DNA of 63,912 nucleotides, filler included, from Folioceros fuciformis (taxonomy: Eukaryota): the NCBI GenBank assembly GCA_049999805.1. It is 14 parts of 14 records of this genome, joined end to end, with 100 filler letters (N's around TTAATTAATTAA, not from the genome) between each part and the next. Parts side by side here need not be neighbours in the genome. Positions count along the whole stretch, not along the records: positions 32,522 to 44,506 come from JBNGIO010001577.1; 13 more parts are not named here. One strand, written 5' to 3'. Made by a program: the position numbers and the translations under genes. How positions within the stretch are numbered: the stretch's first letter is position 1; the number at the start of each line of letters is the position of its first letter. The notes under the pieces were generated by a model. That model was not told the origin of the DNA, made no database searches, and was given only the letters and a program-made list of their open reading frames with translations. Positions 20,201-50,158 of this stretch are shown here, piece after piece.

Positions 20201-20963
20201 AGGAGGGGCTGTGGGTGTCCGGCGCGGCCGTCACCGTGGCGTCCATGAAAGTCGGGGAGGAATCGAGAGCCATCTCCATGAGCGACTGGTACGTGGAAGC
20301 CGCACCAGGAGGCTGCTGCTGCTGCTGTCTTGCGGTGTTGAGCATTTGCATTTGCATCCCCGCCGGCTGCTCCGTTGGATTGGTGCCGAAGAAGGCGTTG
20401 GATCCTGTGGAGGAATTAGGGGCAGCGGTGGCAGGCTGCTGCAGCAGCTCCAACAGAAACTCCTCCATGTCCGAGGACTGCGCGTCCTTGAGGAATGCAT
20501 CCACGTCGTCCACCACACCTCCTCCCCCCGCGGTGTATGGCGAGCTGGGCCTGAATTGGAAGTTGAAGGCAGAGCTTGGGGACGCAGCAGGAGGAGGAGC
20601 AGGAGCATTGACGCTGTTGTTGGGGGACCCGGCTGGGGCTGCAGCCGTGCTCTTCAAGGCTGCGGGAAGCTCCGACTGCGAGGCTGCAGCCGGGGCTGAG
20701 GCGGAGGCATCCCCGGTTGCTACAGCAGCCGCATCGACATCGGAGGCGGGGAGCATGGCGGAGGCATCGTACGCCCCCAGATCTCCGTAGACGGAGAGGG
20801 GAGCGTGGGAGGAGGAGGAGGAGGAATTCATGAGGGGAGGCGGGCTGGGAGCCTGGGTGAGATTGGAAGAAGGGGAGGAGGTGGAGGAGGTGGAGGCGCC
20901 GGTGCAGGAGGAGGGGAAACAGCTGCTACTGGTGGGGAAGGTGCAAGCGGTGGCATTGGAGGA
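17293..20963 (-). CDS. GRAS-family transcription factor (RAM1/RAD1/SCR-related), at least about 1100 aa, 3 exons, 5' end possibly truncated
   Basis: Exons 20831 (frame open to the contig end at 20963)-18252, 18097-17745 and 17650-17293, with GT-AG introns of 154 and 94 bp. Motifs: LHRI GLQLVRLLLACAEAVA...PIQRLAAYFAEALAAR; VHIID-like [33 protein letters not shown]; PFYRE-like RFMACLHYYSAVFDAF; IIACEGTDRVERHE; terminal VSAWR. Confidence 0.93.
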
Positions 20964-21063
20964 NNNNNNNNNNNNNNNNNNNNNNNNNNNNNNNNNNNNN
21001 NNNNNNNTTAATTAATTAANNNNNNNNNNNNNNNNNNNNNNNNNNNNNNNNNNNNNNNNNNNN

Positions 21064-23581: not shown

Positions 23582-23681
23582 NNNNNNNNNNNNNNNNNNN
23601 NNNNNNNNNNNNNNNNNNNNNNNNNTTAATTAATTAANNNNNNNNNNNNNNNNNNNNNNNNNNNNNNNNNNNNNNNNNNNN

Positions 23682-27096: not shown

Positions 27097-27196
27097 NNNN
27101 NNNNNNNNNNNNNNNNNNNNNNNNNNNNNNNNNNNNNNNNTTAATTAATTAANNNNNNNNNNNNNNNNNNNNNNNNNNNNNNNNNNNNNNNNNNNN

Positions 27197-29378
27197 CGAC
27201 CTTGGTAGCTGTCAAAGAGGAACCCAAATCTCCAACACACGGCTTTGAGGCCCTAGAAGCTGCTTATACCGAATATAAGTACAACGAGGCTCCATCCCAA
27301 GCTTCTACAATGGAACAACGCTCACAACACTATCATAAGCTTTGGGAGTCCATAACCAATTTGGTGCACGACGTGGAAACTGTGCGCAAACTTGAGTCTA
27401 GCTTCGATCGTGACTCAGTTCCGGCGAGCTCTCAATTGCTGTAGTTACCGGACAGTGGTCCATAGGTGGTTGATGTGACATACACAATATTTTCTTTGAC
27501 ATACTCTTCTACTCTGACGTTATTCTAAGCCTTGTGTTTTAATGCAATACTTGCCTAACTCTCTGTTGAAGACTAAACCACAAGTATGTCAGGGACAAGT
27601 ACTCCAATGACCTCTATCCCTCCATCTATGGCATCGGTGATCAATTTTATGAACGTTTCCACCGACTTCAAAGAAAAAGATAGGTTCAATGGGACCAAGT
27701 ATGAAGTTTGGTCTTGGGGGATGAAGGCGGCACTGAATACGCGCGATCTTCTTCCACTTGTGGAAGGAACTTCCTCCAAGCCTTTGGCACCCCAGACAGC
27801 TGTCGAAGCTAGGTTAAAACTTGATCGTCAAGCCATGCATATGTTGATATCTGGCCTTGACGAGACTACGTTACACCATACCGATGGTGCAACTACAGCA
27901 GCAGAAGCATGGAAGCAGATAAATGACATTTATCAATCCACCAATGTGATGACCCTGGTCACTGTGCGGCAGGAGTCTTATACTCTTCGTGTGCAATCAG
28001 GCGATAGTATTGCTCACCATGTGAGTCGATTTCGTTACCTCCGGGCACAATTGGCTGCACTAGGCACTACTATGTCTGAGTTTGATGCTGCTGTACAATT
28101 GTTGGCTAGTCTTCCGGCTAGCTATCAATCCTTTGTCTCTTCACACAACCAGTCGGTCCGTAACTCTCAGCGAGCAGTGGCGACTGGTGGTCACTCCACC
28201 CTTACTGTGTCCGAGATTGCTGGAGCGCTTCTGCAAGAGGAGGCTTCTCGCTACAATTCTGGCACATCTAAGCATGGTGGTGAACGCGTGATGTTTGTTA
28301 CCCGAGGCCGGTTTCAACATCAGCCTAAGAAAAGAGACAATACCACAAAACGGATGCCTTCCAATAGTCATCCCAAATCCACTTCTTCTGCCTCTACCTC
28401 CAAGACCCAGAAGCGCCAAGGTGCTTGTAATTGGTGTCTAATTCCAGGTCATTGGGAGAGGGAGTGCAGGAAGAAGCAAGCTGGTGAGGCTAAGAGAGAG
28501 CCCAAGTCTACCAATATGGTAGTAGCTCCTAAGGCCAAAAATCAGTCTAAATCAGAGATTGCTCTTACTGTGTGCCTTGTTACCTCGGCACTCAAGACAT
28601 CGTGGCTCCTTGACTCTGCGGCTACTACTCACATTTGCAGTTCCAAGCATATGTTTACTACCTATGAGGTTTCTTCTAATCCTCCACGGTACGTGCTCCT
28701 AGGAGATGATTCCGGTCTTGCCATTCATGGCATAGGGACGGTAACCTTCAAATTAGAAGATGGTTCTATCCTTATGCTGAAGGATGTACTGTATGTTCCA
28801 CAAATGGCCAAGAACCTTATCTCCATTCGTCATCTTGTGCACGATGGTTTTTATAAATTGGAGTTTGACAAATCCGCTTGTCTACTCTATCGCTCCTCTC
28901 AGCCACACAAGGTGGTTGCTAGAGGTTGTCTTCATAGCGATCTCTATATCTTTTCAGGCACCCTTGTGTCTTCCTCCAGTGTTTCTGTGGTGGACTCGAC
29001 TAAGGATGCAGTGGCTGCAAGGCACTCACCCACCGAGCAAGTCTTTTTATGGCATTGTAGACTTGGGCACCTTAACTCTGCCAAGCTTCTTGCCATGTCC
29101 ATGCAGGATCTCTACAGAGACAAGCTTCCCGCCTTGGCCAAGACTCCCCCATTTTGTGAAGCCTGCGTGTTGGCCAAGCAGCGTAGTGCTCCATACACTA
29201 GTCTTCCTGCACACAGGGCGTCTCAGCCCTTGGAACTAGTACATGTGGATCTGTGTGGACCTCTACCTGTACCTTCTGTAGGCGGAGCTCGCCATTTTAT
29301 GACGATTGTTGATGATTACTCTCGTTATACTTTTGTGTATCCGCTCCGTCTCAAGAGTGACTCCTTTGCTGTGTTCCA
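27197..29378 (+). mobile_element. Ty1/copia retrotransposon, second copy of the same family: leader plus open gag-protease-integrase ORF from 27586
   Basis: Uninterrupted ORF with RFNGTKYEVWSWGMKA, CNWCLIPGHWEREC, WLLDSAATTH, LWHCRLGH and LVHVDLCGP. Segment 28388-29378 aligns closely but not identically with 23682-24673. Confidence 0.96.
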
Positions 29379-29478
29379 NNNNNNNNNNNNNNNNNNNNNN
29401 NNNNNNNNNNNNNNNNNNNNNNTTAATTAATTAANNNNNNNNNNNNNNNNNNNNNNNNNNNNNNNNNNNNNNNNNNNN

Positions 29479-30960
29479 CCTCCACCTCCACCACCTCCTC
29501 CAGTGATGGGTCTGGGACCTCAGCAGTCTCCAAGCTCAGTCACTAAGCCAGTACCTAGTGTCTCCGCTAAGCCATCAGCTGAGGCAGCACCCCTTCCACT
29601 TTCGCCTGCTCAGGCAACGCCCGCTGGTGAGTCCAGGTTGCAGACGTATGGCTAGTGGCATGATCCATTTGGTCTTCGTCGGAGTGCCTTTCAATTAACG
29701 CCGTGGCTCTCCTGTGTGACTGAGCTCCTGGGTGTGCAAGGACGATGCTTAGAGCCGTAACGTCTTTTCGTGTTTTGTCAGCAGGGCAAGGGACTATGAG
29801 TGATTTCATGGTTAGAACTGAAGAAGGAAGGTGTGTCCTGGCTCGCTCTCCCATGTGTCTTCACCTCATACTGCTTTGAACATGTGAGTCGTACTCTTAA
29901 GTGTGGTCAGCTGACCTTGCCCCGTGTTGTAACAGGACAGTGCCTCTTGGGGAAGGACTCCAGCTTGTTCTTGAAGGTGCTGATATGAGCGCAACCAACA
30001 GAGGGATTGCGACGAACAACTTCCTGGAGGCGTTTGTGGAAGGCAAGCTGTCTCCCAAACTTGAAATGCATCGTTCTGAACATCGGTTGTCACACTAGTA
30101 GCAAGAGTAACTCATGATGCGATCAGCGTATGTTGCGGATTTTTTTACAACTTACGTATGATGTGGTGTACAGAACCGGAAGAACTTGGCAGAATGATCG
30201 AGAAGTATCCAAAATTGATGCAAAAGTATCCTTTAAAGCCGCAGCTGTGCTATGATCTGATGATGGCGTGGGAAGAAAATTGTCTAGACCTTTTGACAAA
30301 GGAGGAGTGGGTAAGATGATGTTATTATTCCGTTGGCAGGGTTATACCAAAGTCCACGTTGTTACTGAAATCTCTTCAAATAGGCGTGCATTAAGACTGG
30401 GCCTTTCCATGATGCGTGCAGGCAAAGCATGGCCGGTCGATTGCTGCCTTTGATCTTTGTCGTCTCGATGACCCAGAAGGAGCAGTTGAGGAAGCTAAGA
30501 AGAAGTTTGCAGCCATTCTTAAAGTTCGGAAGTATGTCAAGATGCGTTCACTAGATTTCGCACGTCCACAGTGTCCACCCTAAAGCACGCAAGGAGGGCT
30601 GTTGCTATCTGGATGGTTTGACCTGAAATTTGTTTGTGGTTTCTGTTGTCTGGATTCAGAGAGAAAGAGTGGAAGGAAAGGTCTAAGCAGATCAAGGGTG
30701 ACATGTCTGCCGAGCTTTCAAAAGCTGTGAGCGGTAGGAAGGTACGCTCACCAACCACTTTTTTCTGGGAAGTGTAGTCTTGCGAAAAAATTTAGTATGG
30801 TTGTAAGAGTGCTTGTGGCTGTGCCTGTGAGCAGGAGAAGATCAATGTGGAGATAGCGCAAGATGAGTTGAAGAGCATGTCCAAGGGCAAGATCAAACTC
30901 AAGAGTAAGAAATCACAGTCAAACCTTGAGAGTTTGACGGATCCGGGCCGTTCCTCTTAG
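29479..30960 (+). CDS. 3' portion of a multi-exon gene for a polyproline protein with a helical, basic C-terminus (model uncertain)
   Basis: The contig starts in frame with PPPPPPPPVMGLGPQQSP...ATPA|GTGAGT (donor at 29627). Later exons with good splice sites read PEELGRMIEKYPKLMQKYPLKPQLCYDLMM, EKEWKERSKQIKGDMSAELSKAVSGRK|GTACG and EKINVEIAQDELKSMSKGKIKLKSKK...GRSS-TAG (30960). The best join of the middle exons needs single-G indels near 29810, 30310 and 30434. Confidence 0.6.
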
Positions 30961-32521
30961 TCCCCTTCCATTTCGTTCTCTCATTTTATCGTCCTTAGGC
31001 TTGAGGCCCCAAAATTCATGGGGCATGCGTGTACATGAGGTTTTTCTTATTGGGTAGGACAATCAGCACTATAGAAGTGTTCAGACATTTTTTTAACATA
31101 GGACAGTGTACAACAAAAATAGAAATCAGGTAGATAACGTGTTGCGAGGCATTGCTGCCCTGTAAGGTGGTCCAGCAGTCTGTATGTAGTGGCCTGCCTG
31201 GATCTACGAAGCTTGGTCTTGATCAGGGTGAGACCAATAAGTGCCATGAGCCAGCGTCCAATTCAGTTGTACCATTTCTCCCCACAATTTTGAATTGAAT
31301 TGGATCACGCTAAATTTGCTTCCTTTCAACCAAACATGGTGTACGCACCTTCCTGCAAAATTGCGTGAGAGTTCTTGTGTGAAAACCAAGCAAGAAAAGT
31401 AGCCATCTCCATGGAGCTTTGGCGAGCAAGCAAGTTGAGCTTCCGTATTCACATGGATTGATTCGTGAGCGGCACGTGGTGCATCAGTCTATGACGTATT
31501 ATTATAATACTACATATGCATCCCCACTGCGTGGGGCAAATCATGTGACTGCATTACACTTGACCTGGTACAACCTTACGCAGGTACCTACAATCTTCAA
31601 AAATATCTGCTTAGAGCGCGTGTCTGCCTACGTCGGAGAAGCAGGAGCGTCCTCCTGACAGATGAAACAATGTGGGCCGAAGAAGTCAGCAAAGCTCGAA
31701 GGGTGGAAAATCGGAGATGGGAACTAACGAAACTCTCCTAAGACGTGTTTCCTCCAATTCCCTGCAGCTGAGGATACGGGAGAGGGGGCGAGGAAGGGAG
31801 TGAAGACTGGGTCTTTCTCAATTGGACACATTCTGGGTGACATCGATGGGCACTGGGGGAGACTAGGCATTCCGGGGATGGGTAGGGCCCTCTCAATGTC
31901 GTGAGCTCTACTGAAGGTGGTGGCCTTCCAGGCCAAATCAGTAGCGATGGTGTGCACATGGGCTGAAAAGAAGAACTAGGTGGTCGGCTGTCAAATCCGA
32001 TAACGTTTAGAACAGTGGGTAGGTTAAGCGTCGGGGACAAAACAAGGCCAAGCCTGTGGTGTCCATGTCATTCAAATCCTTTGTATGTCGGATGGTGGAG
32101 ACATGAGAAGGTTTAATTGGGATTGAGTGAGATTGCGAAAAAGCAGAGAAGTGAATCTAAGCTTGCAGTCCACCTCAGATGAGTGGAAGGCCAAATGTCT
32201 TCTCAAGCTCCCAGGACGATCAATCATGCAGGTGTAGATAGATGACGCCGGAAAGCGAGAATGGGTTGGCTGTCAATTCCGATGATGAGTCAAGAGACAG
32301 AGCAGGTCAATCGTGAGACTAGGTCAAGGGACGGCAAAGGGTCAGGAGCAGGATATCTGGCCTTGCAAGGGGGTCAAGGTTGTGTGTGTGTGTGTGATCC
32401 AGCTGATTCGGGGTTGCGTTTNNNNNNNNNNNNNNNNNNNNNNNNNNNNNNNNNNNNNNNNNNNNTTAATTAATTAANNNNNNNNNNNNNNNNNNNNNNN
32501 NNNNNNNNNNNNNNNNNNNNN

Positions 32522-35500
32522 TGGTCATCAAACCAGATGGGGGAGGAGGTGGTGGAGGAGGAGGAGGGGCAATAGGTCCTCGAGAGAACCCATTTGCAGT
32601 GAGAGGTGGTTGAGGTGGTGGTGTTGATTGTTGTTGTGCTGGCAGTGGAGAGGAGCTACTGGTTGGCCCGCTTTCAGGTGAGGAGACGTGCCCTGGGGCA
32701 ATTGACGGTGCAAAAGATGGCCGCTCCTCAGACTCTGAGACTCCCAAATTTCTTGCTGACACAGAAAGAGAATCTAAACTAGGAACATCAGAGCTTGGAA
32801 GGGACACAGGAGATGATTGATTGGAGGAAGACTGCATGATTGGGGAGGGGGAAACAAACTTGTCTGACAGGGATCGGGAAGGTTCGGGATGCTCACGATC
32901 TTCCACCGTAACCTGTGACGAGATGAAAGAGAGAGATCTAACAACAGACGGAATCTGATCAGCTGATTTAAACGATGAGACTGACACCAAGGAAGGAGCT
33001 TGAACTGGAACCTGTCCTTCTAACGCTGAAGTTTGAGGAGACTGAATGAAGAAGGGCGTTTGTTGCGGGGTAGGTACGAACCCTGAGGGTGGGCGATACA
33101 CAACCTGAGCGTGCCCAGTCCCTCCTGCACCTGCGGGCAGCTGATACACGAACTGAGGTTGCTGCTGCAGCACAAAATTAGCTCTGTCTCCGAGCTCCAC
33201 CCCTGACGCACGAAGCAGCTCTTCAGGTGTTTGTGTGCCCTGCACGTATATCACATTGACATCTTTCTCCGAGCCGTTCCTAGCAAGCGCTGGGGGAGTT
33301 TGACCGCCAGTCATGTAGACAATCTGCACGGTTGGAGTAGACTTTTCTGGTGTTAATACTGTGTTCTTTCTCCAACTTCTTCCCCTGGCGAGGTGAGGGA
33401 TGAGCTTTAGAGCAATAGCTGTCACCATGGGAACCCCCATAGGCTCAAAAAACTTGGCCCCAAACACTTGATTGCTGTCACTTTCAAGCTTCTCTTTGAA
33501 GGCACGGGCATCCATTTCAGGTTCCCTGATCTTCCCGTGCTCATGCTTGCTTCTCTGGAAATAGACCTCGAAGTCTATAATAATGCTCCCCGTCCGCTTC
33601 CGGAGTATGTGTACATCTCTCATTTCAACCCGAGCCAATGTCGCAATGCTACGTCTGAATACGCCTTCTGCTTCGTCATTGAAATCAGACATCTTTGCCT
33701 TGGGAAATGTTACAGTTGCCTCCACAATTGTCACAGGACCACTTGGGTCTGCATCAGTTTCATTTGTTCCTTCAGGAGTATCGAGAACCCACCACCCTGA
33801 GGGGTACCTATGTTGCAGAAAGTGTTTGAGAGTTCTGGCATCGATCACGTCGTCCCGAATGTTGGAGATTGGAATGTTCCAAGCTCCATAGCCCTTAGCA
33901 TTCTCTGGTATGAGCTTGTCCAGGAGCTTGCTGACTTCTTGACCACGTCGCTTGTCAGAACACATTATAGCCAAACATTCTGCTGCTCTCTGTCTCAGTA
34001 CAACTGACCCATCGATATCCAATACAAAATCTGATATTTTGGAAACAAGACCCAATTTGAAAGCCATCTCCACCGTCTTATGGCTAAGCCGCATCAGGCG
34101 GAGGAGTAACATTAAACTGCAAAGTCTTGGATCCGTGCCTGCATTTCCTGCATCTGATTGTGGTACATGTAGACTCAAGAAGGATGAGAGGGTATAAATC
34201 AGCTCCTCCGAAATCACACAGTCTACAATATCTTTGTGTTTAGCTGTGCAATGAAACAAAAGCATGGCAGGTTGAGCAAGCGCTCTTCGCTCAGTCCCGG
34301 GGACCCCGCTGATGTAATCCTGCAGAGGTAAAAAAATATCAATGTTTGAAGAGTAGCCAGACAACAATGCCGGGCGACCCTTGAACAGCAGGAGCAGAGC
34401 GAGCAATAATCGCCTCCGGTCATCCAGATCAAATTCATCAGAGTGTATTCCATCAGTGGGGACTCCGATAACCACTGCTTTCCGGATCTCCCGCATGAAC
34501 CGATCCTCAAGAACTGTACCAAAATCATACTGAGGGTTACGCAAAAACTGGTCAACATAAAAACCCCCAAGGTACAATTCCCTCGCATAGCCCTCTTCCT
34601 CCTCATCCTGAAACAGTGGTCTCTGATCATCATCAGAGACTGTTACAAGCACCCACCGCAAAAACACGGGCCGTTTCCGTACCAGCGACCAGGATGGTAT
34701 GCCAAGCAGACCCTTCTGCAGGAAGGCTGTTTTCATTGCTTCATTTTCAAGAGTGGCCTTCACCTGATCCCTTGTATTATCATCCCAAACCAGCCTAGGG
34801 GAAAGATAGTTCTTGTCATACATAGCACATGCTTCAGACGGATCCCTTGTAAGGGTGGATAGCAGGTCCACTGGTAAAAGAAGAAGCAAAGTCTTTAACA
34901 CAAGCGGTTCCTCTCGGTGGCCTCCGGGCTCCATGACATCCATCAGCTCATACATGTCAGTTGCTGCACCTATAACCTCATCACCACCTGCCCGCCCATT
35001 TGCAGAGCCGTGTCCAAAGCTCTTCCGCTGAGCCAAGTCATTTAACAGCTTCACCCTCCTGCTGACCCCACTTCCTGCCAAGAGAAGCTGCCCAATAATC
35101 TGTGCAGCTAGAAGCCTACAGAATGGTGACACTGACGGCACCGTAGAGTCAAAAGCGGAGCTGTCTCGGAGACTGGGGAGCCCCACTTTACAAAAGAGAG
35201 CTAAGAGCGGCAGCAGGACTCCACTGGTAGAAAAGATATTAGTGGCAGCCACGTTGGCTGGAATGCTTTCGCTGAGCAAGAGCAAAGCGTCTGTGGATGC
35301 CACAATAACATCTTCCCGATCACCACCTTGGTTGTCTGCAATAGCTTCCCAGAGTTGCATGGTTAGGGCATTTATCATTTCGGATTGCAGCACAAGTTCC
35401 CTTGCCAAATCGCGACCAACCAGAACCTTCACAATGGATGCAAACAACACCTGTGCACGGGGTAAAGTTCTCTTAGGCATTGGAATTTGTGAGAGGATCG

Positions 35501-38500
35501 AATGTCTCAGATGCGGTAGCAGATCTTCCCTACCACTCTTGAACGCATAACTCAGACATTCTTTCAAAGCTCCCAACACTGTTAAGTACTTCTCAACAGC
35601 ACCATCCTCAACAATCTGATCACTGTCCGACTCAGCATTCTCGTTCTTCTCGGTGGGAACCGAGATAACATCCTGGTGTGTTTCCAAATAATCCTGTAAG
35701 ACAATGAAAAAGTTGTATCCTTGTGGAAGTTCGAAGCCCTGCCACTGGCCACTTGCAAGGCCTTTCACATATAGGCCACCAACGACAAGTTCTTCTTTGA
35801 GGCAATCAAACTGGAAGGCCTGCAGCCACTCAAGGTCATCTCCAGTCTCAACTCCTCCCCCTGCAACGGCAGCATTGTGCAGTTGCAATCGTTCAGTGAC
35901 ACGAGATCTCAGCTCCTTACGCACTTCACCAGTCCATATTGCCATTGGTTGCTGAATGTTTGCTGTTATCATTGAAAGGAACTTCTCTGGTCCTTCAGAT
36001 TCTTCCAAACTGGCCAACAAAGGTTCTGGGATGATCCTGGCCATGACGTTACGTCCAATAACCTGTCTCGGAGTAGGACTATCACCTCCAGCCTTATTCA
36101 GTACACACAACAGGGAACCCAGCACATCCGCGGCAGAGTACAAAAGAGCAGACTTAGAGTCTCGAGATTTTACAGCCGCATCTTCTGGCGGAATCGCAAG
36201 TAACAGCAGCGGCAAGTATAGACCCTGCAAAATCAAGCTTGATTATGCCGCGTCCCTTTGCTCAACAAACCTTGCATCAAAAGTGCGCATGGCCAGAGAA
36301 GGATATTGCAAAACTCCGGAGTGATGCCCTACCTGTTTAAGAATGCGGTCACAATACTCCTCATCTTCTGCAAAATTCTTCAGACAACTCAGTGCAGCAA
36401 AAGACACTGGGCTGGGGCCCTTGGGTGGGATTTCGGCAGCATCACCAGCAGCCGAGCACAGTGCCCACCAAAGACCTTTTCTCCAGCGAACATCGTCACG
36501 AACAAGTTGCCGTCCAGCTCTACAAAACGGAACATGAGTCTCCTGCACCCTCATTCAATAGGTCAAACGGAATTCAAACCAAGTACATTCGAATTTACCT
36601 TGATGAGCATGCTTGTTCAAGCACAAAAAGTGAGCCGGCAACAGCAGACTCGAGACTTGCATTGCTGCTAGACTCTGGAAAGCACCCGTCGACCCTTAGT
36701 TTTGTTCCGAGTGACAGAACACTCATGGCAAAATTTACGGACGCTTGTGGGGCATTATCTTCCCTGTAACCAATAGGACAACGAATCAAGAACATGCCCA
36801 TGATTCTCAAGGACTGTCATTGTGAGAAAAGATACTCACTTAGAAAATGCTGCACAGTATCTCTTTAGGATTTTCGTAGTGTGCTGCAACATGTCGATAA
36901 GATGCAAGGGAGACTCGTCCTTTTGAGCAAGGCACGTCCTCAGGGCAGGTGTTGCCAGGTTAATCACAACAGGCTCAACATCACTAGGTAGTACAAGCTG
37001 TGGAAATCTCTCCAGGACATATGCCTGCGCAGAATGGTGAGAAAAACTTATTTAGAAGTGGTTATAAAAAACAAGCATGTGTACTGGGCACAACATCCAG
37101 TTGACAGTACCTGTGCGTGAAGAAGAGGGTGGACGCGAGGCAGCTCTTTTCGCCAAGAAGACCCAGGAGATCCAGCATTTGCGAATGCATTACCTGACTT
37201 TCGGAGCTCCTGCAGAGGCAATGGTTGAACCGCTGAAAGTGACATGAGAGAACGAATCGAGCAAAGAAATGCACACTACTCACCAGCATAATACTATTTA
37301 AAAAGCCCACAGGATCGATAATCTGGTATGTGGGGAACCTCTCGGAGTCGAGCAGATTTTGCAAGTAAAAAGGTGCAGCAAACACAGATTCTGAAAGAAA
37401 ACATGTACAAAACAAGGGGCCGTGTCTGTCAATCCGCTTTGCTACATGCATCACGCGTGAAGGGTGAGAAAAAGAAATCAATCGCGGATTGGGCTGAGTT
37501 TACCTTCCAGTTCCGTATAAGTAAGAGGTGGTTTTGGAACATGAATGTACAATGCCATGGGATCACTAGCCCTAAACTTCACATATTCCCCCAGCTCATT
37601 GGCGAGGTGTTCAACCAATCGCTCCCGCATCTCCAGATTCCAAATAACCTCAGGTGTATTTTGCTCAGAATCCAACAGCACTGTGAAGGAGTCTGGTCCC
37701 TGCACAGACTCCCCCTAGATCAAACCTGGCTGCCCAAATCTGGATGGGCACAGGTTCAGGTCAAGAAGATAAACAAATACCTCAGACATCAGTTTAGTAA
37801 TCATTCCTTCTGGTAAATACAGTTGAAGAATGCTGTCCCGCCATGGTGCATGATCAGTTTCCTGCTGCTTGTCCTTCCCCTGTGATAGAGGTACTGGATC
37901 CTACCATGGGAGAGAACATCAACCACTTATCCAAACTGTACGAGATGTTGAATCCACTGGCCTGAGCATTCACAGAAAATGTAATACCTGCAGTAAATGG
38001 CACTGGAGCAGAAACTGGGAAATGGCGAGCCTATCCAGCTCAACGAGGTCCCCATCCAGAAGTTTCCACAGAAGAATCTCAAAAGCTCCTAGTTTATAAA
38101 GACGAGACATGGCGGTCTTGTTGGTTTTGACGAGATAGGTGACAATATCCAATATCCTTCAACACACAAAGACATTCGCAACCCAAGTCAAACTTAGCAG
38201 AAAGGAGCTGACGCAAATCTGCAATAAAATGTACTTGAAGAGGTACAGTACCTTCCAAACACTGGTGTCTTAGCTCGAAGAAGTGCTTGCACTAAGTGAC
38301 ACATAATTTCTTCTCTTGACAAATTTAAACAGGCAGCACTTGGAGGGTAGGTCTCAACATGGCTGTCGCTACCAGAGAACCTTCACGAGCGAGCCACCTC
38401 AGAAATCTTATGTGAAGCAACACAGTGTGTTGACCTGTGGCAAGAAGCAAACCAGCAGAAGTTGTTGAGGAAGTTCTCAGTACCTTAAAATTGCTTCCAT

Positions 38501-41500
38501 CAGATCGAGTGAGATCCCCAATTGAACCTTGTCAGGAACCTTCTCATCTTGCCACTTTATGGCTTCTTTCGCATCCATGCTTCCATCCAGCACTGCTTTC
38601 TCCAGGACTTCACGTGCTCTGCCTGATGGAACCCTCACAAACCTGAGTTCTCCATCTGAGCCAATGAACTGAACAGTTTCAACAGCACCTCGGACCCTGG
38701 TGTCTTCTGTTTTCCAGCCGTCGGACTCAAAAGCAGATTTATCCCTACAGCACTGCAGACATGACCAACGTTGAGGCTTTCCAGCAACATACGCTCCGAT
38801 CATCAGGAAAACAAAAGCTGCTATTGCACTGATAGTGAGTACATGAAAGTTGTCACCTCCTAAAAACCAGAAAATCATTTACCTGGGCCAGTGAAAATGT
38901 GATCAGAGGTACAAGAACTGTTGCACCGCCAGCGCGTATGAAGCGCACAACGTTATCACGGCCACCACTTTCTACTAGAGCAAGCAGAAACACCACCAAT
39001 TTGAAGACAAGCACTTGATGCTCAGTTTCTATTATTTCTCGCAACATTCCCACTGCAGCCTGCCCAACAACAAAGGCTGGTCAAAAGAGAAAACTCAATT
39101 CGCCCTGCAGACTCCCAAGGCAGGCAGATAGTGCGCAAAGAAGAAGAAACAGGATAGCCACAAACCTCAATCACATTGAGTGCCTCAAGGCAATAAGCAA
39201 CTTCCTCAGCATGCCTTTCGTATATCCAGGCTAAGGTATGGGCTGCAAGTCGAAGATCTATCTCAGGCAGATTATTGTGCCCAAAAAGCGGGGTAAAGCC
39301 AAGGACCATAGCCTGAAAGATGGACTGGAAAATGGACAAGGGATCCCGAAGCTGTCACATACAACGAAAACGTGTTCAGACGGCACTTTCCAGCTTCCAC
39401 AAGGAAAACCAGGCCTTCTACATACATAGGCATTCAAATTATTTTTCGAAAATACACCTTCCAGAACAAATCATTGGAACCATCTGCAGGTGGATTTTGA
39501 TCAACCAAAAGCTCCAGATGCACACCTCCAACCACTGAGCCTGCAAGGGAGAAAACACCGCATGTCACATGATCCACACGGTGTCTTGACTCTCTTTACT
39601 AATGTCGGAAAAAAAAGCTTGCAACTGCATAGACATACTTGGACTGACGTGGACCCATAAATGAGTCGCACTGCATGCATACCTTCACCCTCACTGGCAG
39701 GAGAGTAGACCAGCAGCACATCAGCACTGTTATAAACCAAGTCACGATTCCCAGCCAACGCTAACTCATAACCCTTCAACTCTTCTCGCAAAAACTGAAT
39801 CCAACAAACCAATTCATCAGACGTTAGAAATCAGAAGACAAATAAGCAAACATGCACAAAGGAGGGGATTTCATGACCATGTTTTACAAAAAGAGCAGAC
39901 AACCTTCCGAAGTTCCATCCTCTTCTGATCATTCCACACCAGAACAGGAGTTTCCAAACTTTCCTTTTGCAAGATTTCCAGAGTTTCCATCCAAGCTGGC
40001 AACCTGCTGGAGGATCTCTCCTGCACAGATACACAACACAATCAGAAAATGACCCTCTTACTTGTCACAGGACTCCTCTACCCAATTGATTATTTACATT
40101 TCTTAAAAAAGATTGTTCTGGTATTGGGTTGAAGAGGCTAATCAACCTTTTCAGCTGTTGACATCTCAAATGCCTTAATAGCATACAGACGCATCACCCC
40201 CTGAAACAAATGATAACAGGAGTCAGCAAAATGTTACCAGTGCTAAACAACTGCACCTAATTAGGACACATTACCTTCGGAAGAATTGCCTCTAAAAGCC
40301 TGCGAGATTCCCTGTTCCCCTCCAGCATCAGATACACGAGGTTGCCACTCAACACCCTTACATGCTTCTTCTCTGAAAAGATAGCATTCCTCAAATGCAA
40401 TAAAAGAACACAGCGATCCAAGCATGTTTTCTGGCACAACATGATCGTCAGTTATCAGAGTAAAATCAAATGACAAAATATGTACAACACTGATTCACTA
40501 TGTCTCGTGAGACAAAACTTGCACATCAATTACCTGCAGCTGATTTGATATGTAAGGTGATGTCTTCATTAACAATCCTTTCAGAAGCGAAGAAGCACTG
40601 CACAAGTATGCTTTGCTCATCAAGCTGGTTCCCCAACACGTAAAACAACTATTCAAAATGAAAATTTCTGAAAGAGAAAGCAGAGCCTCTAAAAACAAGC
40701 ATAGCGTGCCAAGATACCTTTGGAAAACCACAAAGCTAGGGGACCAGAATATTGTACAAATGATGTCAGCAGCCGCCACAACAGCAGACTCAAACGCCTG
40801 CACGTCATTACAGAACGACATATTAGTGCACATTCAGAGAGAACAGAATTCAAACCTACCTAGAATTCAAGTCTACCTAGATTTAGCATACCTTCATCCA
40901 CATTCGAGTTGCCTCACTCTCGGTTGTCTGAGAGAGCAGAAGTCCAACAGAGATTATCTCTAGCAGACCAAACACCTGTCATATACAGAGATGTTAGGCT
41001 TCCACAACAGAACGTCAACTCGCACTTAGACCCACAGAATAGGTGTGACAAATTCATAATGGGAAGTGAGGATTGCATGCCAGGGAAGCAACCGATCACC
41101 TGGAGAGCATGGTTCTTAGCTAAAGATCTCGTGTGAAGCAACGTCACTAGTAGTTGTAAATTTTCCGCGTTGAGGACAGCAAGCTTGTTTGTGATTTCTT
41201 GCTACAAATATCAAGAACAATATCAATTCATCTTCTCCAAGGGAAGAGTGGAAAACAGCAGAAGCAACTTGCTCCTTGCTGGCAGCAAAGGAAAGACAAC
41301 TACTTGTGCATCAGGTCACCTTGGATGGACTGAAGTCCGAACTGCCTCCTTCCACAGGTAGTTTGAAGCAAGTCCGCAGGGCAACGGATGCTAGGTAGGA
41401 AAGCACTGCGTTGTCTGAACGAAGACACTGAAAGCAACACCAAAATGCTTAAGTAACCTGCAACCTACTGCATCTTCACAACTGTGCCATCAGAATATGT

Positions 41501-44032
41501 AAAAGTAGCAAAACAAAAGTAGATAGTAATGTCCACAAGAGTCATGCCCTTTCAAGAGGAAGAGCCTGTAACAATATGTAGCACATCGAGGAGCACATAG
41601 CGATTTTGCTACTGTCATTCTGACCACTTCTTCTGCTGGTCATAACTTAATAGGTCAGGCCTACATTCTAGAACAGTCAAATAAAGCTTTACCTGGAAAA
41701 GGACAGCTACGACATCTGAAAGATTTCTCATTGCATCAAAACAGGCTCGTGAGGCTAGTAGTCTTTGAAGCACAATGCAGCAAGTAGTTGCACACACAAT
41801 ATCCCTCCCAAGATCCACTGTTCCACAACAACCACATCAGCATTCGGACGTCTAACCAGTTTCAAGAGACTTGTGGCAGCGACGCAAGGAATACGTTCAC
41901 TTGACTTACCAAGGCAATCTTTCAGAACATCTGCAACAGCCTGAGCTATTTTCGGATCAACACATTGAGAGTCCCCAACCTGCATAAAACGCAAAAATTT
42001 AATTAATCCTTCCTCAGAAAATCGAACCGTTGCCCTGCATCATTGAAAAAGGTGTACTGCCTGACAGAGGTCAGGTTTTCCATAAAACGACATGTAACCT
42101 GTGAATATGTCCCCTACAAATCAAAACATCCACAGAAGGTGTCTATGCGGCTATTTGAGGACACCAACAGCCTGGGATACTCACATGTATGTTTGCTGCA
42201 TATTCCTTGAGAGAGACATGCAATACTTCAGGGTCACGACTTCCATAGTATGAGCCAATGATCCTATTCAGGTAATAGGTCTCACACTCACTCTGTAATA
42301 TACACAGATGCAAACACATCAGGCCCTCTGCCCAGTGATGAGAGATCCACACAGCCGTACAGGGAACCGATAGCAAAAATCAGTGCGTGCATCCGGCTCA
42401 GGATGATAAGAACCAACCTGGTAGACCGCTTGCAGCTTCTCTGGAAAGCTGTACGGATAAAGATGTTCCATTCGGATACTGAACCATGAGCCCTTGCCGA
42501 TGCCCATGACATTTGCAATGCTTGCAAGGAAGTCATCTCTATCCTCAAGGCAATACTGAGTTGATCGCCATGCCTTGAACTCAACCGTTACCTCTGTGCG
42601 ATTTTGATCGTCCACACTAAGCCCTACAAGATCACTCAAGCTACACCAAATAGCTGTAATGTCACGTTCCCACTCTAGTAGCCATCATTCAGGAGAAGGA
42701 TAGTGGAGAAAATGCATGTATTGTAGTTAACGTACACAATTGGAGAACTCCGTTACCTGTGCACACCGATCACCTCATCACCACATTTCTCAATGAAAAA
42801 GGACTCTGTGATGGTAATTGTACGACGACGGTCTTCATTACTAGAATTCATATGCTTAGTCACATGGAACTCGTAGAGCACAGGCGAATCCTTCTGAACG
42901 ATTAAGCACCATTTCAGTTACAGGAAGGAAGGTAACTGGAAAGTTGTGGAGGATAGATACCCAAGTCTGTTCCGATCCTTACCAGCTTTCGAAGACGTGC
43001 AGAGAGATTGTCTATCATTATAGGTGTTGTTATCCTCTCGATCTCGACGTCAGTGCTTAAGTACGTCTGCCACCAAAAGCAGAGGGATCCAACTTTCTTT
43101 CAGCATGCCAGCCGATGCAACACGATATCTAACAATCCCAGGCCATCGCCCACCAACCTTCATGTTTCGGCGCACTGCTTGCAGAAATGGCAAGGAATCC
43201 TTAAGCGACAGTCTCAGCACACGAGACTTCAGATGCAACAGCACAATGTGCTCGTCATCAACCAGAGTTTCCATCTTAACGATATCTCCGAAGTTGATCT
43301 TTTTAGCTGGGTTGACCTGAGATCAAAGTGCGTCCAGATCATGAGGTGAATGGCAGAAGAAACTGTACTGCACCAGACTGCTCATCGAGGCTATCTCAAC
43401 CCCCACTACTACACGTCTACCCAAACTGATACAGAGGAATCCGACAACCACAAAACCCGTACCCTGCGTCTTTCATGTCGCACACCAGCATTCACCATCT
43501 TCACAATGGATGCACTCCGAATGCGCAGAACTGTGTCCGTCAACCCACCTCGCTGGTTGCTGTGCTTCTTCAGAGGAAAATCTGTGCCTGAAATACCACA
43601 GGAGCTGAATCCAGGAACACGTCGCACTGACCAGCGACGCAAGCGAAGAGAACACACAGCAAGAGGCAGCCCTGCGCTAGGCCAGGCAGCTCAACCATCT
43701 CATAAATCCAATCCCTTACCAATGCCATTGACCTCGTCCAACTTATTGAGAAGCGCAGTCAACAAGGCAGTCCTAGAATCGCAACAGAGCCGAACAGATT
43801 CATGGCCACCCCTGGCTCCGTCAAACATTTCCACCGTCAGCTCAGTGCTGTCGTCGTGCGAGGGGAACACCCTTGACATGCGCTCGAAAGTGTACTCCAT
43901 CGCCGGAGCATTGAAGGAGGACAGGGGGGTGATGGTGATCCCATGATCCGAAACCCGGAGAATCCGCAATACTCCTTTCGCGGACCTGGTGCCGCTCCCG
44001 GGAGGTCTGACCAGGAAGACCTGGTAATCCAT
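32522..44032 (-). CDS. RME8: Divergent RME-8/DNAJC13/GRV2 (KAM2)-like protein lacking the J-domain, with a C-terminal SEA-like domain and polyproline; 3' end truncated by the gap
   Basis: ATG at 44032. N-terminal PH-like blocks (RILRVSDHGITIT...CDSRTALLTALL; LYEFHVTKH...RRTITITESFFIEK; LVGLSVDDQNRTEVTVEFK...YCLEDRDDFLASI) align in order with my recollection of the RME-8 N-terminus. Four IWN-type repeats: LVWND (~39925), EVIWNLEMRERL (~37640), AIWTGEVRKEL (~35935) and LVWDDNTRDQV (~34785). Also YLQNLLDSERFPTYQIIDPVGFL and ELYLGGFYVDQFLRNPQYDF. The last exon (36224 to the gap) is about 3.7 kb and open. Confidence 0.85.
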
Positions 44033-44606
44033 GACTGGCAACCGACCCGAGCCCACTCAATTCCTCTCTACATCCCACAACGGACGGCGACTCCCCACCC
44101 CCTGACCTAACACGAATCCTCTTCCCTACCCAACCCGGTACAACACAATCCACCTCTCCCCACAACCGCACCAGGAATTCCAATTGCTGGATCCCGCACA
44201 AAAATCCGTTTTCTCCACAATACGAAATCTACAGCCTGCCCTGCCCCGTGGCTAAGTTTCGCCAAACCCACCTCCGATCCCGACACCCGAGGCCCCAAAT
44301 TCGGCCCTCCACCCCGGGTCACAGATCCGCGAAGCGGCAATGCGTCGTCCAGAGACGCACGCTCTCACTCTCGCGGGCCCGCGACCTGCAAACTCAGCCC
44401 GCACCAGCTCGGGGGAGCAATCCGGGCCCGGAGGCACGCCAAGGGACGTCAGAATCCGCATCTAGGAGCTGCCTCCAGATCCGTCATCCTGGACTCCTCC
44501 CACCGCNNNNNNNNNNNNNNNNNNNNNNNNNNNNNNNNNNNNNNNNNNNNTTAATTAATTAANNNNNNNNNNNNNNNNNNNNNNNNNNNNNNNNNNNNNN
44601 NNNNNN

Positions 44607-45704: not shown

Positions 45705-47280
45705 TCAATACAATCTAGTGTCGTGATGATGAGCCTCTCAGTCGCACCTTGCACATAAGATAGCTCACTCTATTTTTAGAGTAGGCTACCTCATGTGCAT
45801 GATGGATTGTAGGCCCTGCATGTTTGGCACTAGGTTAATTGATTCTGGAGAATGTCAAAAATTCTAACAAATAATGCAATCTAAAGTTGCTAGGAAATCT
45901 TGTCGATATGACTCGTAGGAATTCCAATCGTCCTCATCGGGCTCTTGTGAATTTCTGCGATCACAAGGCTAGGTGTCTATCAGCTGGCTGGAATTCAGAT
46001 AGCTATCAGACAGAGGCATCTTACCCTTCCTCTAGTCGTTCTCAAAGGCTAGCTGAGTTGATCTTTGAGTCACAGCTCAATCCTCCTCTCAACAGAAGTC
46101 AGCACAGGGCTGAATGTACAAGGCGAACGGCTGCACATCGACAAGAGACCCCTGTGTTAGAAGACAATCGTGAGACAAGGCTAACTCTCTCAAGTCTACG
46201 TGCGGAATTTGCAACAAGAGGTCTCGATTCTGCTTCAACCTTGCTGGATGTCCAATCAACATTGAGAGATCAGTCTGCTGCTTCTCCTCAGGGGAGACAC
46301 GCATCTGAGGCGGCTTGATCCGCCACAGATCAAGCGCAGGTGGGCGCCCCAACGCTGGTGCAGGGCGTCAGCCAGCGCCAGGCGCTGGAGGCCAGCAACC
46401 TGTTCTCAACCGTCACGTTCATTTGACATGACGGTTGGCTGTGCTTGACATCTGTCACCAAACGCTGTCTTTGAGTAGGTTTTGTGCCCTAAAAACAGCG
46501 TTTCATATCATGCTTAGTTTTGAACTAATGCTGACCTAATGAAACGTCATTAGTTTGCTACTTACCGTTTCATGTCTTTGCATTGGGATACTGAGTCTGA
46601 TAGTTAGGTAGACGAATCTTCGGATGTAGAGGAGGTTTTTCTACAGTCTCTTGCATCGCAGTTCCCTTNNNNNNNNNNNNNNNNNNNNNNNNNNNNNNNN
46701 NNNNNNNNNNNNTTAATTAATTAANNNNNNNNNNNNNNNNNNNNNNNNNNNNNNNNNNNNNNNNNNNNACATCAAGGATGTAAAAACGACGGCTTTGTGT
46801 TCACTATGTATATGAGGCTGGACCAGGATGTGCAGAAAGCGACTCCACGATTCAAACTGGTTTCCAACATGCATATATTTTCTGAAAATAATTTCAAGGG
46901 AGAAATAAATTCTCAGACCTGTATTTATTTACCGTTTTTATACGTAGTGAGTAATTCTCATTTCATATTACAAACAAGCTGCGTGACAAAAGTGTGTGTA
47001 AGTGTGAAGTTTGAGTTACTTCATGCTGCTATTGTGTGGCTAGATATGTGTAGATATTACAGTGATAATGATGGGATTTCGGTTATTTTATGTATTGGTC
47101 ATGATGTTTATGTGGGCGAGATAAACAAGTTGGTTGATTTCCATGTTAGGTTAGATTATCTCTTGTATGATAGTTAATAGATAGTTAGCACACGTTTAGG
47201 CGTCATCTTGGTGACGTCTTGCAGCTCAGAACTGGAGACTTTGTACTGAGATCGTGTGGCTTCTTAATCTGATGAGGAAG

Positions 47281-50158
47281 CTACTGCTTATCAACTCTGT
47301 AAAGGGATCTGAGCTCTTTGAGTTGCTCGATGCTGAAACCGAAACGAGTGTTGGGGCTGTGGTCTGCCATGCAGTTGAACAAGATTGGTACTGCTTTGGC
47401 GCCTCCCATCTTTGATTTTCCATGGTCATTGTTGGGCTCGGTGTTGTCTTGAGTGGTGGGTTGTGAGTCCACTTCTATCATGCCGAAATTGGTCATGTAC
47501 TCCCTTTCCACGATGTGGAAATCAGCGATGTTTTCTTTGTCATCCACACGAGTTGCTTCAATGCTGGCAGTGATGGAGCCACGTTCCAGTTCGGATACTG
47601 ACAATCCTGGAGCAAAGTGGTCCAGGAGAGTGGCTACGATGAACCTGGCCTTCTCCCCCATCAGCCTCAGAGCCATGGGGAACCTGCCGCACCTGGTTAT
47701 GGCTTCCAGGATGTCGAATAACCATAGGATGTCTGGATTTGGTGTTGGGTCGAAGGTGTCGTCGGCACCTGAAGGTTTGTCCTCACAAGTCGGGGTGACA
47801 TCCGGAAAACTGATTGGGCCACTTGACCTGGTCATGGACGATCGTTGCTCCTGCTGTTGCTGCCGTTCGTCTGTGTCAGTGGAGAATCTGACATCGCGTT
47901 CCGAGGTAGTCACTGATGTGAAGTCTCGTACTTCCAGCCTGACGTTTCTCCGGCGAGTGGAGACATCACCCTGTGCTGACAGTCTGACGCTACCTCCGTG
48001 GTCTGAGCTTGGACCAGAGAGGTAGTCACGCCCGCTGAATTTGAGGTTCTTGATCTGAGCAGCGACGTCGTCTGACACGGCTGCCGCAATGCTGGCGTCT
48101 CTGGTAGGGCTGGAAATGGCAGGCGGCTTGGGGTTGGGAGGAAGAGGTTGCTTCGCGGTTCCGACGCTCGAGGTAGGTTCCCGGTGCCGGTGATCCCGCA
48201 CCCGGAGCTCGTCTGCAGGGACGGGCTTGAGTATGCCGAAGCTGCTGAGGATGTCGTCAAATCTTTTGAGGTTCTCGCAGGGCTGGATTATGAGGCTGTA
48301 CTTGGGGAACTTCTGTTTGCGCGTTGTCTCCCTGTCGATGGCCCAGGCTTGAGGTTCGGCTGGCGGTGGCCTGTTTTCATCCAGACATGCCTGTGAGGCG
48401 GCCATCTCTGTAGCCAGCATGCGTGCTTCCAACTGCACCGCAGCATGCTCCGCTGCGCTGCGCGGGACGTGCCTGTCAGCGCTTGCGCTGGCAGTGTCCA
48501 CATCCCAGGTTACGGTTGCATGGTGCTCGGGTTCCTGCTTTGGGTGAACGTTTGCCCGTGCTCCTGCGCCTGGCTTCTTCCTGGCTCCAGCCCTTGCCTT
48601 GGCACTGGGAATATCCGAAGGAGGGTCATAGCAGGCAGGCTGGTCATGCCCCTGTCCTTGCGCGCCCGTCTGGTGGCTCTTTCTGACATCTGCCAGTCCC
48701 GGGTCTGCCAGATCTCCGTCCTCAAGAGACGGAGCTCTTCGGTTTCCTCTTCTGCGAGAGGTTGTGGAAGCTTTGTCCCCTCTCGGAGGGTTGGGGGTGG
48801 AGTGGGAGCCTGAGCCTGAGTCTACGCCATTCTGAGTCTGCTCGGATGCTGTCCCGGCTTCGGGGGACGAGCAGCTCACCTGTGTGAGCTGCCAGTCCCA
48901 TAGAGTCTCCAGAATTTCCCCAAGAAGACTGGAAGGGATCTCGTCCCTGAACATGAGAGGAAACTCATGAGGTGACAGCCTTCTCAGCATCCGAAACCTT
49001 GCATTTGAATCTTTGCCCATCCTCTTCCACTCTTTCCTGAACGTCTCAGCGTGGCAATTGCTGCCTGGGAGACTAGTGGGGGCCTGGGCCCCGGTATGCA
49101 GGGCTCCGGTATACTGGCCATAAGGAATGGTAGATATCTTGCCGAGTGTTGGAGGCACATCGTGCATGCCTTTGAAGGCTGCTTCTGGTGCTCCATACCT
49201 GTTGTTCTCATAATGCTCTTTCATGGCACCATCCAGGCCACATCCTACTGCAGAGCCTGAGGCTGGCAAGCCCTTGGCTTGCCGACGCACGTAGGGCAAT
49301 CCAACGTTCCCAGTTCCACCTTGTAGGTCATAGCCTGTCAGTGTGAGAAGATGCTAAGAACTTGACATGACGACAGGGCAACTTGTTTGATCAACAAAAA
49401 AGCGGGGTACCGTTGGAGGCAGCCCCGAGAGGTTTGATTCTGCCACTGGCCAAGGGTGCTCGAGCATTGGACAGGAGCCGAGCAAGTTTGAGGTCTGCAC
49501 CGGTTGGGGGAGCCTTGTCTGCGTCTGGTCGGATCCGACGCCCATTTGCATCATATAGTGGTGGAGGAGACCTTCGCTTAGGAGACCCATCTCGCCCTTT
49601 GGATCGTGTAGGGGAATTTGCCCCGATCTGATCATTGGATACCTGCAGTCCAGAAACCCGGAAGTTGATCATTTATGCCAACAAGTAGGGAAGGCAGGTC
49701 TGTAAAGGTAGGGCTTAAAACCCTTCCACCTACAGAGTCCCGACCACCAGTACCAGAGCAGAGATGGTTGTGTAATCCACACTTTGAGCTTCAGCTACAT
49801 CCACCAAAACAGAGGCCTTGCTATTGGCACCATTCTTCTGTTTCGAACCCTTCTCCGATTTCTTCCCTTGCTTTTCATCCATCTCCTTTTGCCTGTTAAA
49901 AGCCTTGCTGTTCCTCAGCGGCTTACACCCCGAGCTTATAGATTCTGCTACCTTCCTGGCCATCCTGCGTGACTGCAGATAGCCCAAATTTATGGCTTTT
50001 TAGGAAGTCGGAAACATGCAACAATTCAAGTCCATGGGGAACTGAAATTCCAACCCTCATGCCCACAAATGGATTGTAGAAATGCACTCTTGGTTTGAAG
50101 CAAGAGGGAAGAAAACCAGTACCTGGAACTTTTTTTCGGGTCCCGCAGTGGAGCTCAT
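47281..50158 (-). CDS. RPAP3_C-domain protein (CCDC103-like architecture, no TPRs), about 846 aa, 4 exons
   Basis: Phase-consistent exons 50158-50123, 49972-49754, 49642-49411 and 49334-47281. RPAP3_C-like motifs AETFRKEWKRM...RFRMLRRLSPHEFPLMFRDEIPSSLLGEILETL, then LFDILEAITRCGRFPMALRLMGEKAR, and terminal EQLKELRSLYRV. Confidence 0.72.

Follow-up and report, generated by a model that had tools for sequence, protein, structure and literature searches.

The stretch of DNA considered here, called the window throughout, comprises 63,912 bases from Folioceros fuciformis and consists of a chain of separate assembly pieces connected by 13 linkers of the form N44-TTAATTAATTAA-N44. One of these pieces (32522-44506) carries the main part of a gene whose product is a large protein of the RME-8 type (RME-8 in C. 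elegans, DNAJC13 in humans, GRV2/KAM2 in plants) from which the J domain, with its HPD triad, is missing. Very probably this gene belongs to a conserved J-less streptophyte lineage (hereafter the clade) of the RME-8/DNAJC13/GRV2 superfamily and shares the pattern of losses that characterizes it. The models proposed for the action of RME-8, DNAJC13 and GRV2 all center on the delivery of Hsc70 to endosomal coats.

The structure of the gene was obtained from a spliced protein-to-DNA alignment of the piece 32522-44506, guided by the best homologue, a Marchantia protein of 2943 amino acids (aa) designated P0001. This alignment, in which 1581 of the 2564 aligned residues are identical, defines 32 exons on the minus strand, beginning with an ATG at 44032 and containing no stops, with introns that are all GT-AG; together with the 5′ untranslated region (UTR; 44033-44146) they occupy 32522..44146 (-), the frame being open at the edge 32522. 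A contig of 8103 letters from a public run, X1, matches 32576-44146 with 31 joints and 0 mismatches; since 31 introns have been removed exactly, it is most simply read as derived from mRNA, and by virtue of its exact splices the exon structure at the J site rests on more than homology. All 15 contig joints shown coincide with introns 17-31 of the model, including the two beside exon 28. Here exon 27 (37284..37390, -), which ends with FYLQNLLDSERFPTYQIIDPVGFLNSIML and is homologous to the conserved block directly preceding the J domain of canonical RME-8 (YYLRNLCDxxRFPxWPI), is separated by a GT..AG intron of 74 nt (37210..37283, -; contig joint 37208->37283) from the 99 nt of exon 28 (37111..37209, -), whose 33-aa product is ELRKSGNAFANAGSPGSSWRKELPRVHPLLHAQ; a second GT..AG intron, of 86 nt (37025..37110, -; contig joint 37023->37110), leads to exon 29 (36840..37024, -), which starts with AYVLERFPQL and is homologous to the canonical post-J block. 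The joint coordinates leave no spare letters beside exon 28, and an extra exon is therefore excluded there. The last exon of this part, exon 32 (36224-32522, -; 3.7 kb), contains IWN repeat 3. An earlier note on this DNA had described the 99-nt exon at 37209-37111 between introns of 74 and 86 nt; the model reproduces this arrangement, the contig joints agree with it, and the translations that had been given for exon 28 and the adjoining exons match the model letter for letter. As to the span 32522..44032 assigned in the same note, its coordinate 32522 is the edge of the piece and not the end of the gene. Just upstream of the 5′ UTR another X1 contig, of 391 letters, lies at 44159-44506 and may represent either a neighboring transcript or a longer 5′ end.

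Both the assembly piece and the 8103-letter contig end where a poly-proline tract begins (32523..32579, -). Residues 2768-2928 of P0001 match, by tblastn, the plus strand of the neighboring piece, and a second spliced alignment locates there, at 29479-30960 (+), the last seven exons, which encode the C-terminal 248 codons. These exons lie at 29479-29626 (open at the edge, with PPPP), 29785-29830, 29936-30042, 30174-30310, 30422-30531, 30660-30741 and 30835-30957 (all +), followed by the stop codon at 30958-30960. The intron after the exon 29936-30042 (+) is GC-AG, the sole non-GT donor of the gene, in a region covered by the model only, beyond the X1 contig. The edges of both pieces fall within the poly-proline tract, and we infer that 32522..44146 (-) and 29479-30960 (+) are parts of one gene, because together they are collinear with single proteins of Marchantia, Calypogeia and Physcomitrium. 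In total the gene has no fewer than 38 exons and 2916 codons, with the frame open throughout; the locus is an intact, spliced gene.

That this gene encodes an RME-8-type protein, as had been proposed in the earlier note, is borne out by profile comparisons. A profile made of 16 J-bearing canonical sequences only, albeit from an alignment built jointly with J-less rows, matches the spliced protein of the window with 489.7 bits in six collinear stretches covering model positions 26-2066 and leaving out positions 1299-1533; the N-terminal match (positions 26-674, corresponding to the RME-8_N region) amounts to 184 bits, and none of 200 shuffles was matched. Likewise, an hhalign comparison of nine J-less with 13 canonical sequences yielded a probability of 100 and an E of 2.7e-99 over 1960 columns (8-2222 vs 9-2218). 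The Pfam family PF19432 (RME-8_N) was found in all ten orthologues scanned, with E between 1e-18 and 1e-47; single exons of the window gene, too short to be informative, gave no Pfam match. IWN repeats, consisting of [ILV]-W followed by hydrophilic residues, are considered a defining feature of RME-8 homologues (PMC9642905, in excerpt), and the four that had been claimed are all present at homologous positions: IWN1 (PVLVWNDQKRMELRK; 39904..39948, -) with VLVWND, IWN2 (PEVIWNLEMRERLVE; 37610..37654, -) with EVIWNL, IWN3 (PMAIWTGEVRKELRS; 35904..35948, -) with MAIWTG and IWN4 (PRLVWDDNTRDQVKA; 34755..34799, -) with RLVWDD. The Atlas neighbors of the solenoid body are clusters of ARM/HEAT type, to be taken as leads only, and whole P0001 found no match in the PDB at E ≤ 0.01. 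The window protein is 61.7% identical to its Marchantia and 42.0% to its Chara counterpart, and its identity to canonical forms is 18.6-21.3%, the lowest of these values being that for Acer GRV2; judged from these comparisons, the kinship with canonical RME-8 is real but distant.

At the site of the J domain, alignments of the window protein and its orthologues display a linker of ~25 aa in place of the HPD-bearing segment of 75-100 aa that canonical proteins have between IWN2 and IWN3, which upholds the original observation that the domain has gone from precisely the homologous position. The flanks can be followed on both sides: the pre-J block aligns from IWN2 to FYLQNLLDxERFP (YYLRNLCDxxRFPxWP in canonical proteins) and the post-J block RxHLLLxAQ aligns with the canonical LLLKxQxIL. 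The first half of the linker encoded by exon 28 is variable; clade members share its second half (WRKExxRxHLLL), which lines up with LLLKxQ of the post-J block. A hidden Markov model (HMM) of the J domain, derived from 11 canonical RME-8 sequences, gave a best E of 7.8 among 2848 open reading frames (ORFs) in the six frames of the whole window and no match at E ≤ 100 to the spliced model; in a control on 155 stored proteins, the same HMM matched 50 at E ≤ 5e-15. Nor did it detect in the linker a J-like helical segment deprived of its HPD. The hidden HPD-bearing exon that had been envisaged as an alternative was thus sought with both the X1 contig and the HMM, and neither revealed one. Pfam DnaJ is present in 16 of 17 distant matches, and was detected neither in the ORFs around the J site of the window nor in any of the 14 clade members scanned (10 + 4). 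HPD at the J site is found in none of 19 J-less streptophyte proteins, in all 16 canonical ones and in none of ten other J-less proteins (see below); incidental HPD triplets occur elsewhere in three of the 19 and in two of the ten.

The J domain is not the only element to have disappeared. The N-terminus of the window protein reads MDYQVFLVRPPGSGTRSAKGVLRILRV (43952..44032, -) where canonical RME-8 has TKHSW[KR]G[KR]YKR, the W20 signature of phosphatidylinositol 3-phosphate (PI(3)P) binding, and KHSW[KR] (pattern KHS.?W[KR]) is carried by 0/19 streptophyte J-less, 8/16 canonical and 0/10 other J-less sequences; the earlier remark that a KHSWRG-type motif is not visible is therefore confirmed. 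Myristoylation of the N-terminus was considered and rejected for the plant clade, whose proteins start with MDYxxFLVR (MDYQ in the window) and have no glycine at position 2. At the opposite end, the QxHDLF motif of the C-terminal tail is likewise missing from all 19 clade members and from the ten other J-less proteins, being present in 11 of 16 canonical ones, and the whole QxHDLF...[YL]LT tail, which includes the YLT control point of DNAJC13, was not found in the clade; this is a further loss, beyond those of the earlier note. As for the GYF signature, which had been reported as not clearly recognizable, GYF_2 (PF14237), a domain located between IWN1 and IWN2 where present, was detected in none of 14 clade members (ten scanned at E ≤ 0.01 and four at E ≤ 0.001), and in the alignment the equivalent region is shorter and remodeled, a clade-specific conserved segment (38516..38752, -) taking the place of the GYF_2 of plants and animals. 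GYF_2 is nevertheless patchy among canonical forms, occurring in only 6/17 distant canonical matches, and its absence weighs little.

How widely is this architecture distributed? A word-indexed search returned 21 long relatives, for each of which PF19432 is the sole precomputed Pfam family; the sources are Marchantia, Calypogeia, Physcomitrium (P0003), Sphagnum (four entries), Ginkgo, Cryptomeria, Taxus and Ceratopteris, and ten are nameless. An exhaustive HMMER scan of 1.84 billion representatives yielded 13 matches below 1e-30; between these and 1.4e-14, the level at which canonical RME-8 sets in, there is a gap. Further named members are those of Chara braunii, Spirogloea muscicola, three Closterium strains and Coleochaete scutata, along with a second Ceratopteris locus, so that J-less orthologues span Chara, Coleochaete, Zygnematophyceae, liverworts, mosses, ferns and gymnosperms. 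The initial suggestion of a possible restriction to seed-free plants cannot be maintained, given the members in Ginkgo, Cryptomeria and Taxus and also those in Chara, Coleochaete, Closterium and Spirogloea. A distribution linked to cilia or sperm was also rejected, the gene being kept by the conifers Cryptomeria and Taxus; conifers are not known to have motile sperm.

The J-less streptophyte clade receives a value of 100 in the Shimodaira-Hasegawa-like approximate likelihood ratio test (SH-aLRT), and the branching order in a tree of 32 clade sequences is that of the species, from algae through bryophyte lineages to ferns and gymnosperms. In this tree the window sequence pairs with a 79%-identical relative as a separate bryophyte lineage, and the nameless relatives nest in mosses, ferns or gymnosperms or form a land-plant group of their own (P0021, P0025, P0145), none of them occupying the position of angiosperms. 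No angiosperm J-less protein occurs among the database matches found, and with Acer GRV2 as query the 120 listed of 330 matches are all angiosperm or nameless. The clade is thus a streptophyte lineage that extends as far as the gymnosperms and has apparently disappeared from angiosperms. The body of the protein is evenly conserved over its full length, which, taken together with the identities to Marchantia (61.7%) and Chara (42.0%), speaks for long-term purifying selection.

Concerning the origin of the lineage, a tree computed under LG+C20 with posterior mean site frequencies (PMSF) gives the clade a support of 100 and a stem of 1.76 substitutions per column on an unresolved backbone. The clade stays apart from the green canonical group (Acer, Phoenix, P0112, P0122); uniting J-less streptophytes and green canonical sequences in one clade lowers the log-likelihood by 28.8 (approximately unbiased (AU) test, p 0.029). 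When the rows of the other J-less proteins are removed, the clade attaches at the unresolved center of the tree, again not beside the green canonical group. A recent plant-specific duplication is mildly disfavored by these data, with long-branch attraction as an obvious alternative explanation.

A chance close to even, if somewhat short of it, is given to a duplication of GRV2 in the green lineage or in streptophytes, followed by losses and fast evolution, the deep position of the clade being in this case a product of long-branch attraction. The clade stem is very long (1.76 in the PMSF tree; in a reduced tree 1.94, to which 1.0 is added beyond the root), the tree software itself warns of long branches meeting, the forks of the canonical backbone are unresolved in both trees, and all named members of the clade are streptophytes. 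On the other hand, a duplication of this kind has to contend with the AU test, with the position of the clade at the center of the tree even without the other J-less lineages, and with an identity to Acer GRV2 (18.6%) that is lower than the 32.2% between Acer and the distant canonical protein P0068.

An alternative history, which we consider unlikely, is that a single RME-8 paralogue without J or HPD arose before the supergroups split and survives in streptophytes (angiosperms excepted), oomycetes and Heterolobosea. This scenario is inspired by ten further RME-8_N proteins without a J-HMM match or Pfam DnaJ (nine scanned at E ≤ 0.01, P0065 at E ≤ 0.001), which stem from Pythium insidiosum, Lagenidium giganteum, Globisporangium splendens, Pharyngomonas kirbyi (two) and Willaertia magna, with four nameless ones (collectively P0065, P0103, P0120, P0131, P0125, P0067, P0091, P0102, P0128 and P0104), and which in 10/10 cases are also without the KHSW and QxHDLF motifs. 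Like the plant clade, these relatives from Heterolobosea and oomycetes combine RME-8_N and IWN repeats with the lack of a functional J domain, and a single branch of the PMSF tree has every J-less row on the same side; the AU test, disfavoring a green-lineage origin, points in the same direction. The branch that joins them, however, has a support of 62 and a length of 0.033, and the Heterolobosea form a separate group whose union with the plant clade is unsupported. Unlike the plant proteins, moreover, these relatives have other J-site boundaries, and the identity is ~18-19%: one oomycete group (P0065/P0103/P0120/P0131) keeps a degenerate J-like segment without HPD, and in Heterolobosea the gap is clean but shorter. 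Both Pharyngomonas proteins begin with MG, at variance with the MDYxxFLVR of plants. The other J-less proteins match the window protein at E of 3e-08 to 1e-03, less well than the best canonical one (1.4e-14), and the joint loss could be convergent if the three elements act as one circuit. An ancient sister family of RME-8, defined by the joint absence of the W20-type motif, HPD and the QxHDLF/YLT tail and endowed with an Hsp70-independent trafficking function lost in animals, fungi and flowering plants, is an unlikely though conceivable reading; if the oomycete and Heterolobosea forms did share the origin of the plant clade, the evolutionary account of this core endosomal regulator and its family would have to be revised.

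Set beside the canonical plant RME-8, GRV2/KAM2 (P0109 of Acer saccharum), the window protein is collinear over ~2200 residues, having in common the RME-8_N region with its PH-like folds, the four IWN repeats and the alpha-solenoid; the blocks that adjoin the J domain on either side are recognizably conserved. It differs by the absence of the J domain with HPD, KHSW[KR]G, GYF_2 and the QxHDLF tail, by its membership in a separate clade and by an extra C-terminal extension. With regard to human DNAJC13 and C. elegans RME-8, it has the same scaffold as their HPD or J-deletion mutants, and this natural protein resembles an engineered loss of J. These mutants still possess the PH-like domain that binds PI(3)P, and they accumulate to excess on endosomes (excerpts of PMC11702692); since the clade is also without the lipid-binding signature and the tail motif, the mutant phenotype is not simply transferable.

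The extension, which in bryophyte forms is ~700 aa long, consists of a module of ~125 aa and a Q/P-rich stretch, followed by a conserved ~180-aa domain whose tail is rich in lysine, the long poly-proline runs being found in bryophytes. In the window, 33381..33830 (-) comprises the end of the RME-8-like body (HRYPSGWW) and, after it, the first module; the extension continues through 32523-33332 (-) to 29479-30960 (+), whose exons encode the remainder of the Pro-rich region and the ~180-aa domain. The alignment shows the first module to be common to Marchantia, Calypogeia, Physcomitrium, Sphagnum, Ginkgo and Closterium, and the modules as a whole are present in bryophyte, Closterium and, in part, Ginkgo forms. 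Neither 33381-33830 nor 33123-33332 has a Pfam match at E ≤ 0.01, the 183-aa C-terminal domain of P0001 has none at E ≤ 10, and a comparison of the extension with the PDB returned rows at chance level (E 0.13 and 1). A weak SEA lead (score 0.84) was obtained with Atlas for the first module, and a tandem-repeat finder applied to the poly-proline ends returned nothing. The poly-proline and polybasic parts suggest possible contacts with proteins and acidic lipids.

If the capacity to recruit Hsp70 has been given up, what could be the reason for the conservation of so large a protein? A scaffold of 2200 residues which has remained under constraint from charophyte algae to conifers despite the loss of J domain, lipid signature and tail argues for a function of the scaffold itself. 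In the absence of a J domain and HPD, classical stimulation of the Hsp70 ATPase is not to be expected, and an Hsp70-independent scaffold would accordingly be the most likely product. On the whole, a conserved J-less RME-8 lineage with the losses described is the reading that we favor and hold to be probable; the scaffold mechanism within it is put forward more tentatively, with a chance somewhat below even. The scaffolding could be performed by the surfaces of the IWN repeats and solenoid, which C. elegans RME-8 uses for self-association and for binding SNX-1: there, SNX-1 is bound by the region from IWN3 to IWN4, which also touches the J domain (PMC9642905, in part). Human DNAJC13 binds PI(3)P through its PH-like domain, which together with the HPD triad and the YLT motif of the tail constitutes one circuit that controls localization (PMC11702692). 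With the PH-like signature, HPD and YLT all missing, recruitment must use other means, and in bryophytes it might perhaps be ensured by the C-terminal modules, i.e., the ~125-aa domain, the poly-proline tract and the domain with the polybasic tail. The second, Hsp70-independent endosomal scaffold proposed in the earlier note is hypothetical, both as to its location and as to its standing beside a canonical GRV2; the known PI(3)P-binding signature is gone from the protein.

A possible, though less probable, function is that of a regulatory partner or antagonist of canonical GRV2, exerted, for example, through hetero-oligomerization or through competition for partners of the SNX/retromer type. 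Self-association within the family is the basis for this thought: human DNAJC13 forms a homodimer via the IWN1-ARM2 segment and an insertion in ARM2 (PMC13618431, in excerpt), RME-8 has been proposed to oligomerize with IWN3/4 touching the J domain of another molecule (same excerpts of PMC9642905), and IWN repeats 1-4 are retained in the window protein. Its identity to canonical RME-8 is, however, only ~19-21%, and the region after the GYF_2 position, which forms one side of the human dimer interface, is remodeled.

That the J-less form is the organism's only RME-8 homologue and replaces GRV2 we hold to be very unlikely. The 64-kb window contains no canonical GRV2, and no named non-angiosperm GRV2 appears among the 120 listed of the 330 matches to the Acer query or among the four matches to the P0122 query; the window, however, is 64 kb of scattered pieces, which makes an absence there meaningless. 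Moreover, the green canonical clade (Acer, Phoenix, P0112, P0122) has a support of 100 and the J-less clade goes back to streptophyte algae, from which it follows that land plants had ancestors with both lineages side by side. Reports of canonical GRV2 usually cover land plants as a whole. Finally, an artefact (a missed J exon, a mis-assembly or a pseudogene), to which a fragmented assembly with the gene split over two pieces might lend some color, is so improbable as to be negligible, the X1 contig being identical to the model across the J site, the introns there measuring only 74 and 86 nt, no J-like ORF existing in any frame of the window, the frame staying open for at least 2916 codons and the same architecture recurring in 19/19 clade sequences.

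Some considerations nonetheless weigh against a J-less scaffold lineage as outlined here. The identification of run X1 as RNA is a guess only, and the joining of the two pieces rests on homology, with no read spanning the poly-proline gap. In pairwise BLASTP against Acer GRV2 the IWN units alone match, with a best E of 2e-09, so that deep homology rests on the profiles. Furthermore, the orthologues are mostly predicted gene models, some of them clearly truncated, and the absence from angiosperms is an absence of matches, 10/21 relatives being nameless and placed by the tree alone.

The databases name these proteins by similarity only, as 'DnaJ homolog subfamily C member 13' or 'GRV2/DNAJC13 N-terminal domain-containing protein'. 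Full-text literature searches found no description of a J-less RME-8/GRV2 paralogue in plants, in keeping with the statement of the earlier note that no such family was known to have been described, and returned no paper naming both 'GRV2' and 'Marchantia'. A survey that looked for IWN repeats in DNAJ proteins (Norris et al. 2022; PMC9642905) flags homologues in which J residues are mutated or W20 is absent; its section 6 describes no J-less clade. An absence from angiosperms would explain why the J-less form was missed by Arabidopsis genetics, and the orthologues of Marchantia (P0001) and Physcomitrium (P0003) render it directly accessible to bench study. The clade represents a natural deletion experiment on the circuit of PH-like domain, HPD and YLT proposed for human DNAJC13.

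The linkers between the pieces of the window are located at 12525-12624, 14829-14928, 20964-21063, 23582-23681, 27097-27196, 29379-29478, 32422-32521, 44507-44606, 46669-46768, 55958-56057, 58349-58448, 60642-60741 and 62800-62899; the pieces may have either orientation, and coordinates on the two sides of a linker are therefore uninformative as to genomic order. The content of the remaining pieces fits a draft assembly of a land plant. A GRAS domain (PF03514, E 1e-34) is encoded in a long ORF at 18174-21011 (-), on a separate piece, and fragments of Ty1/copia retrotransposons (gag, Pol beta-barrel and integrase) are spread over three pieces at 21386-23095, 23638-25710 and 27577-29430 (all +). 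A 690-aa ORF at 47281-49353 (-) contains an RPAP3_C domain (E 1e-10), and a tRNA-Val with anticodon AAC is recognized by both Rfam and ARAGORN at 62535-62610 (-).

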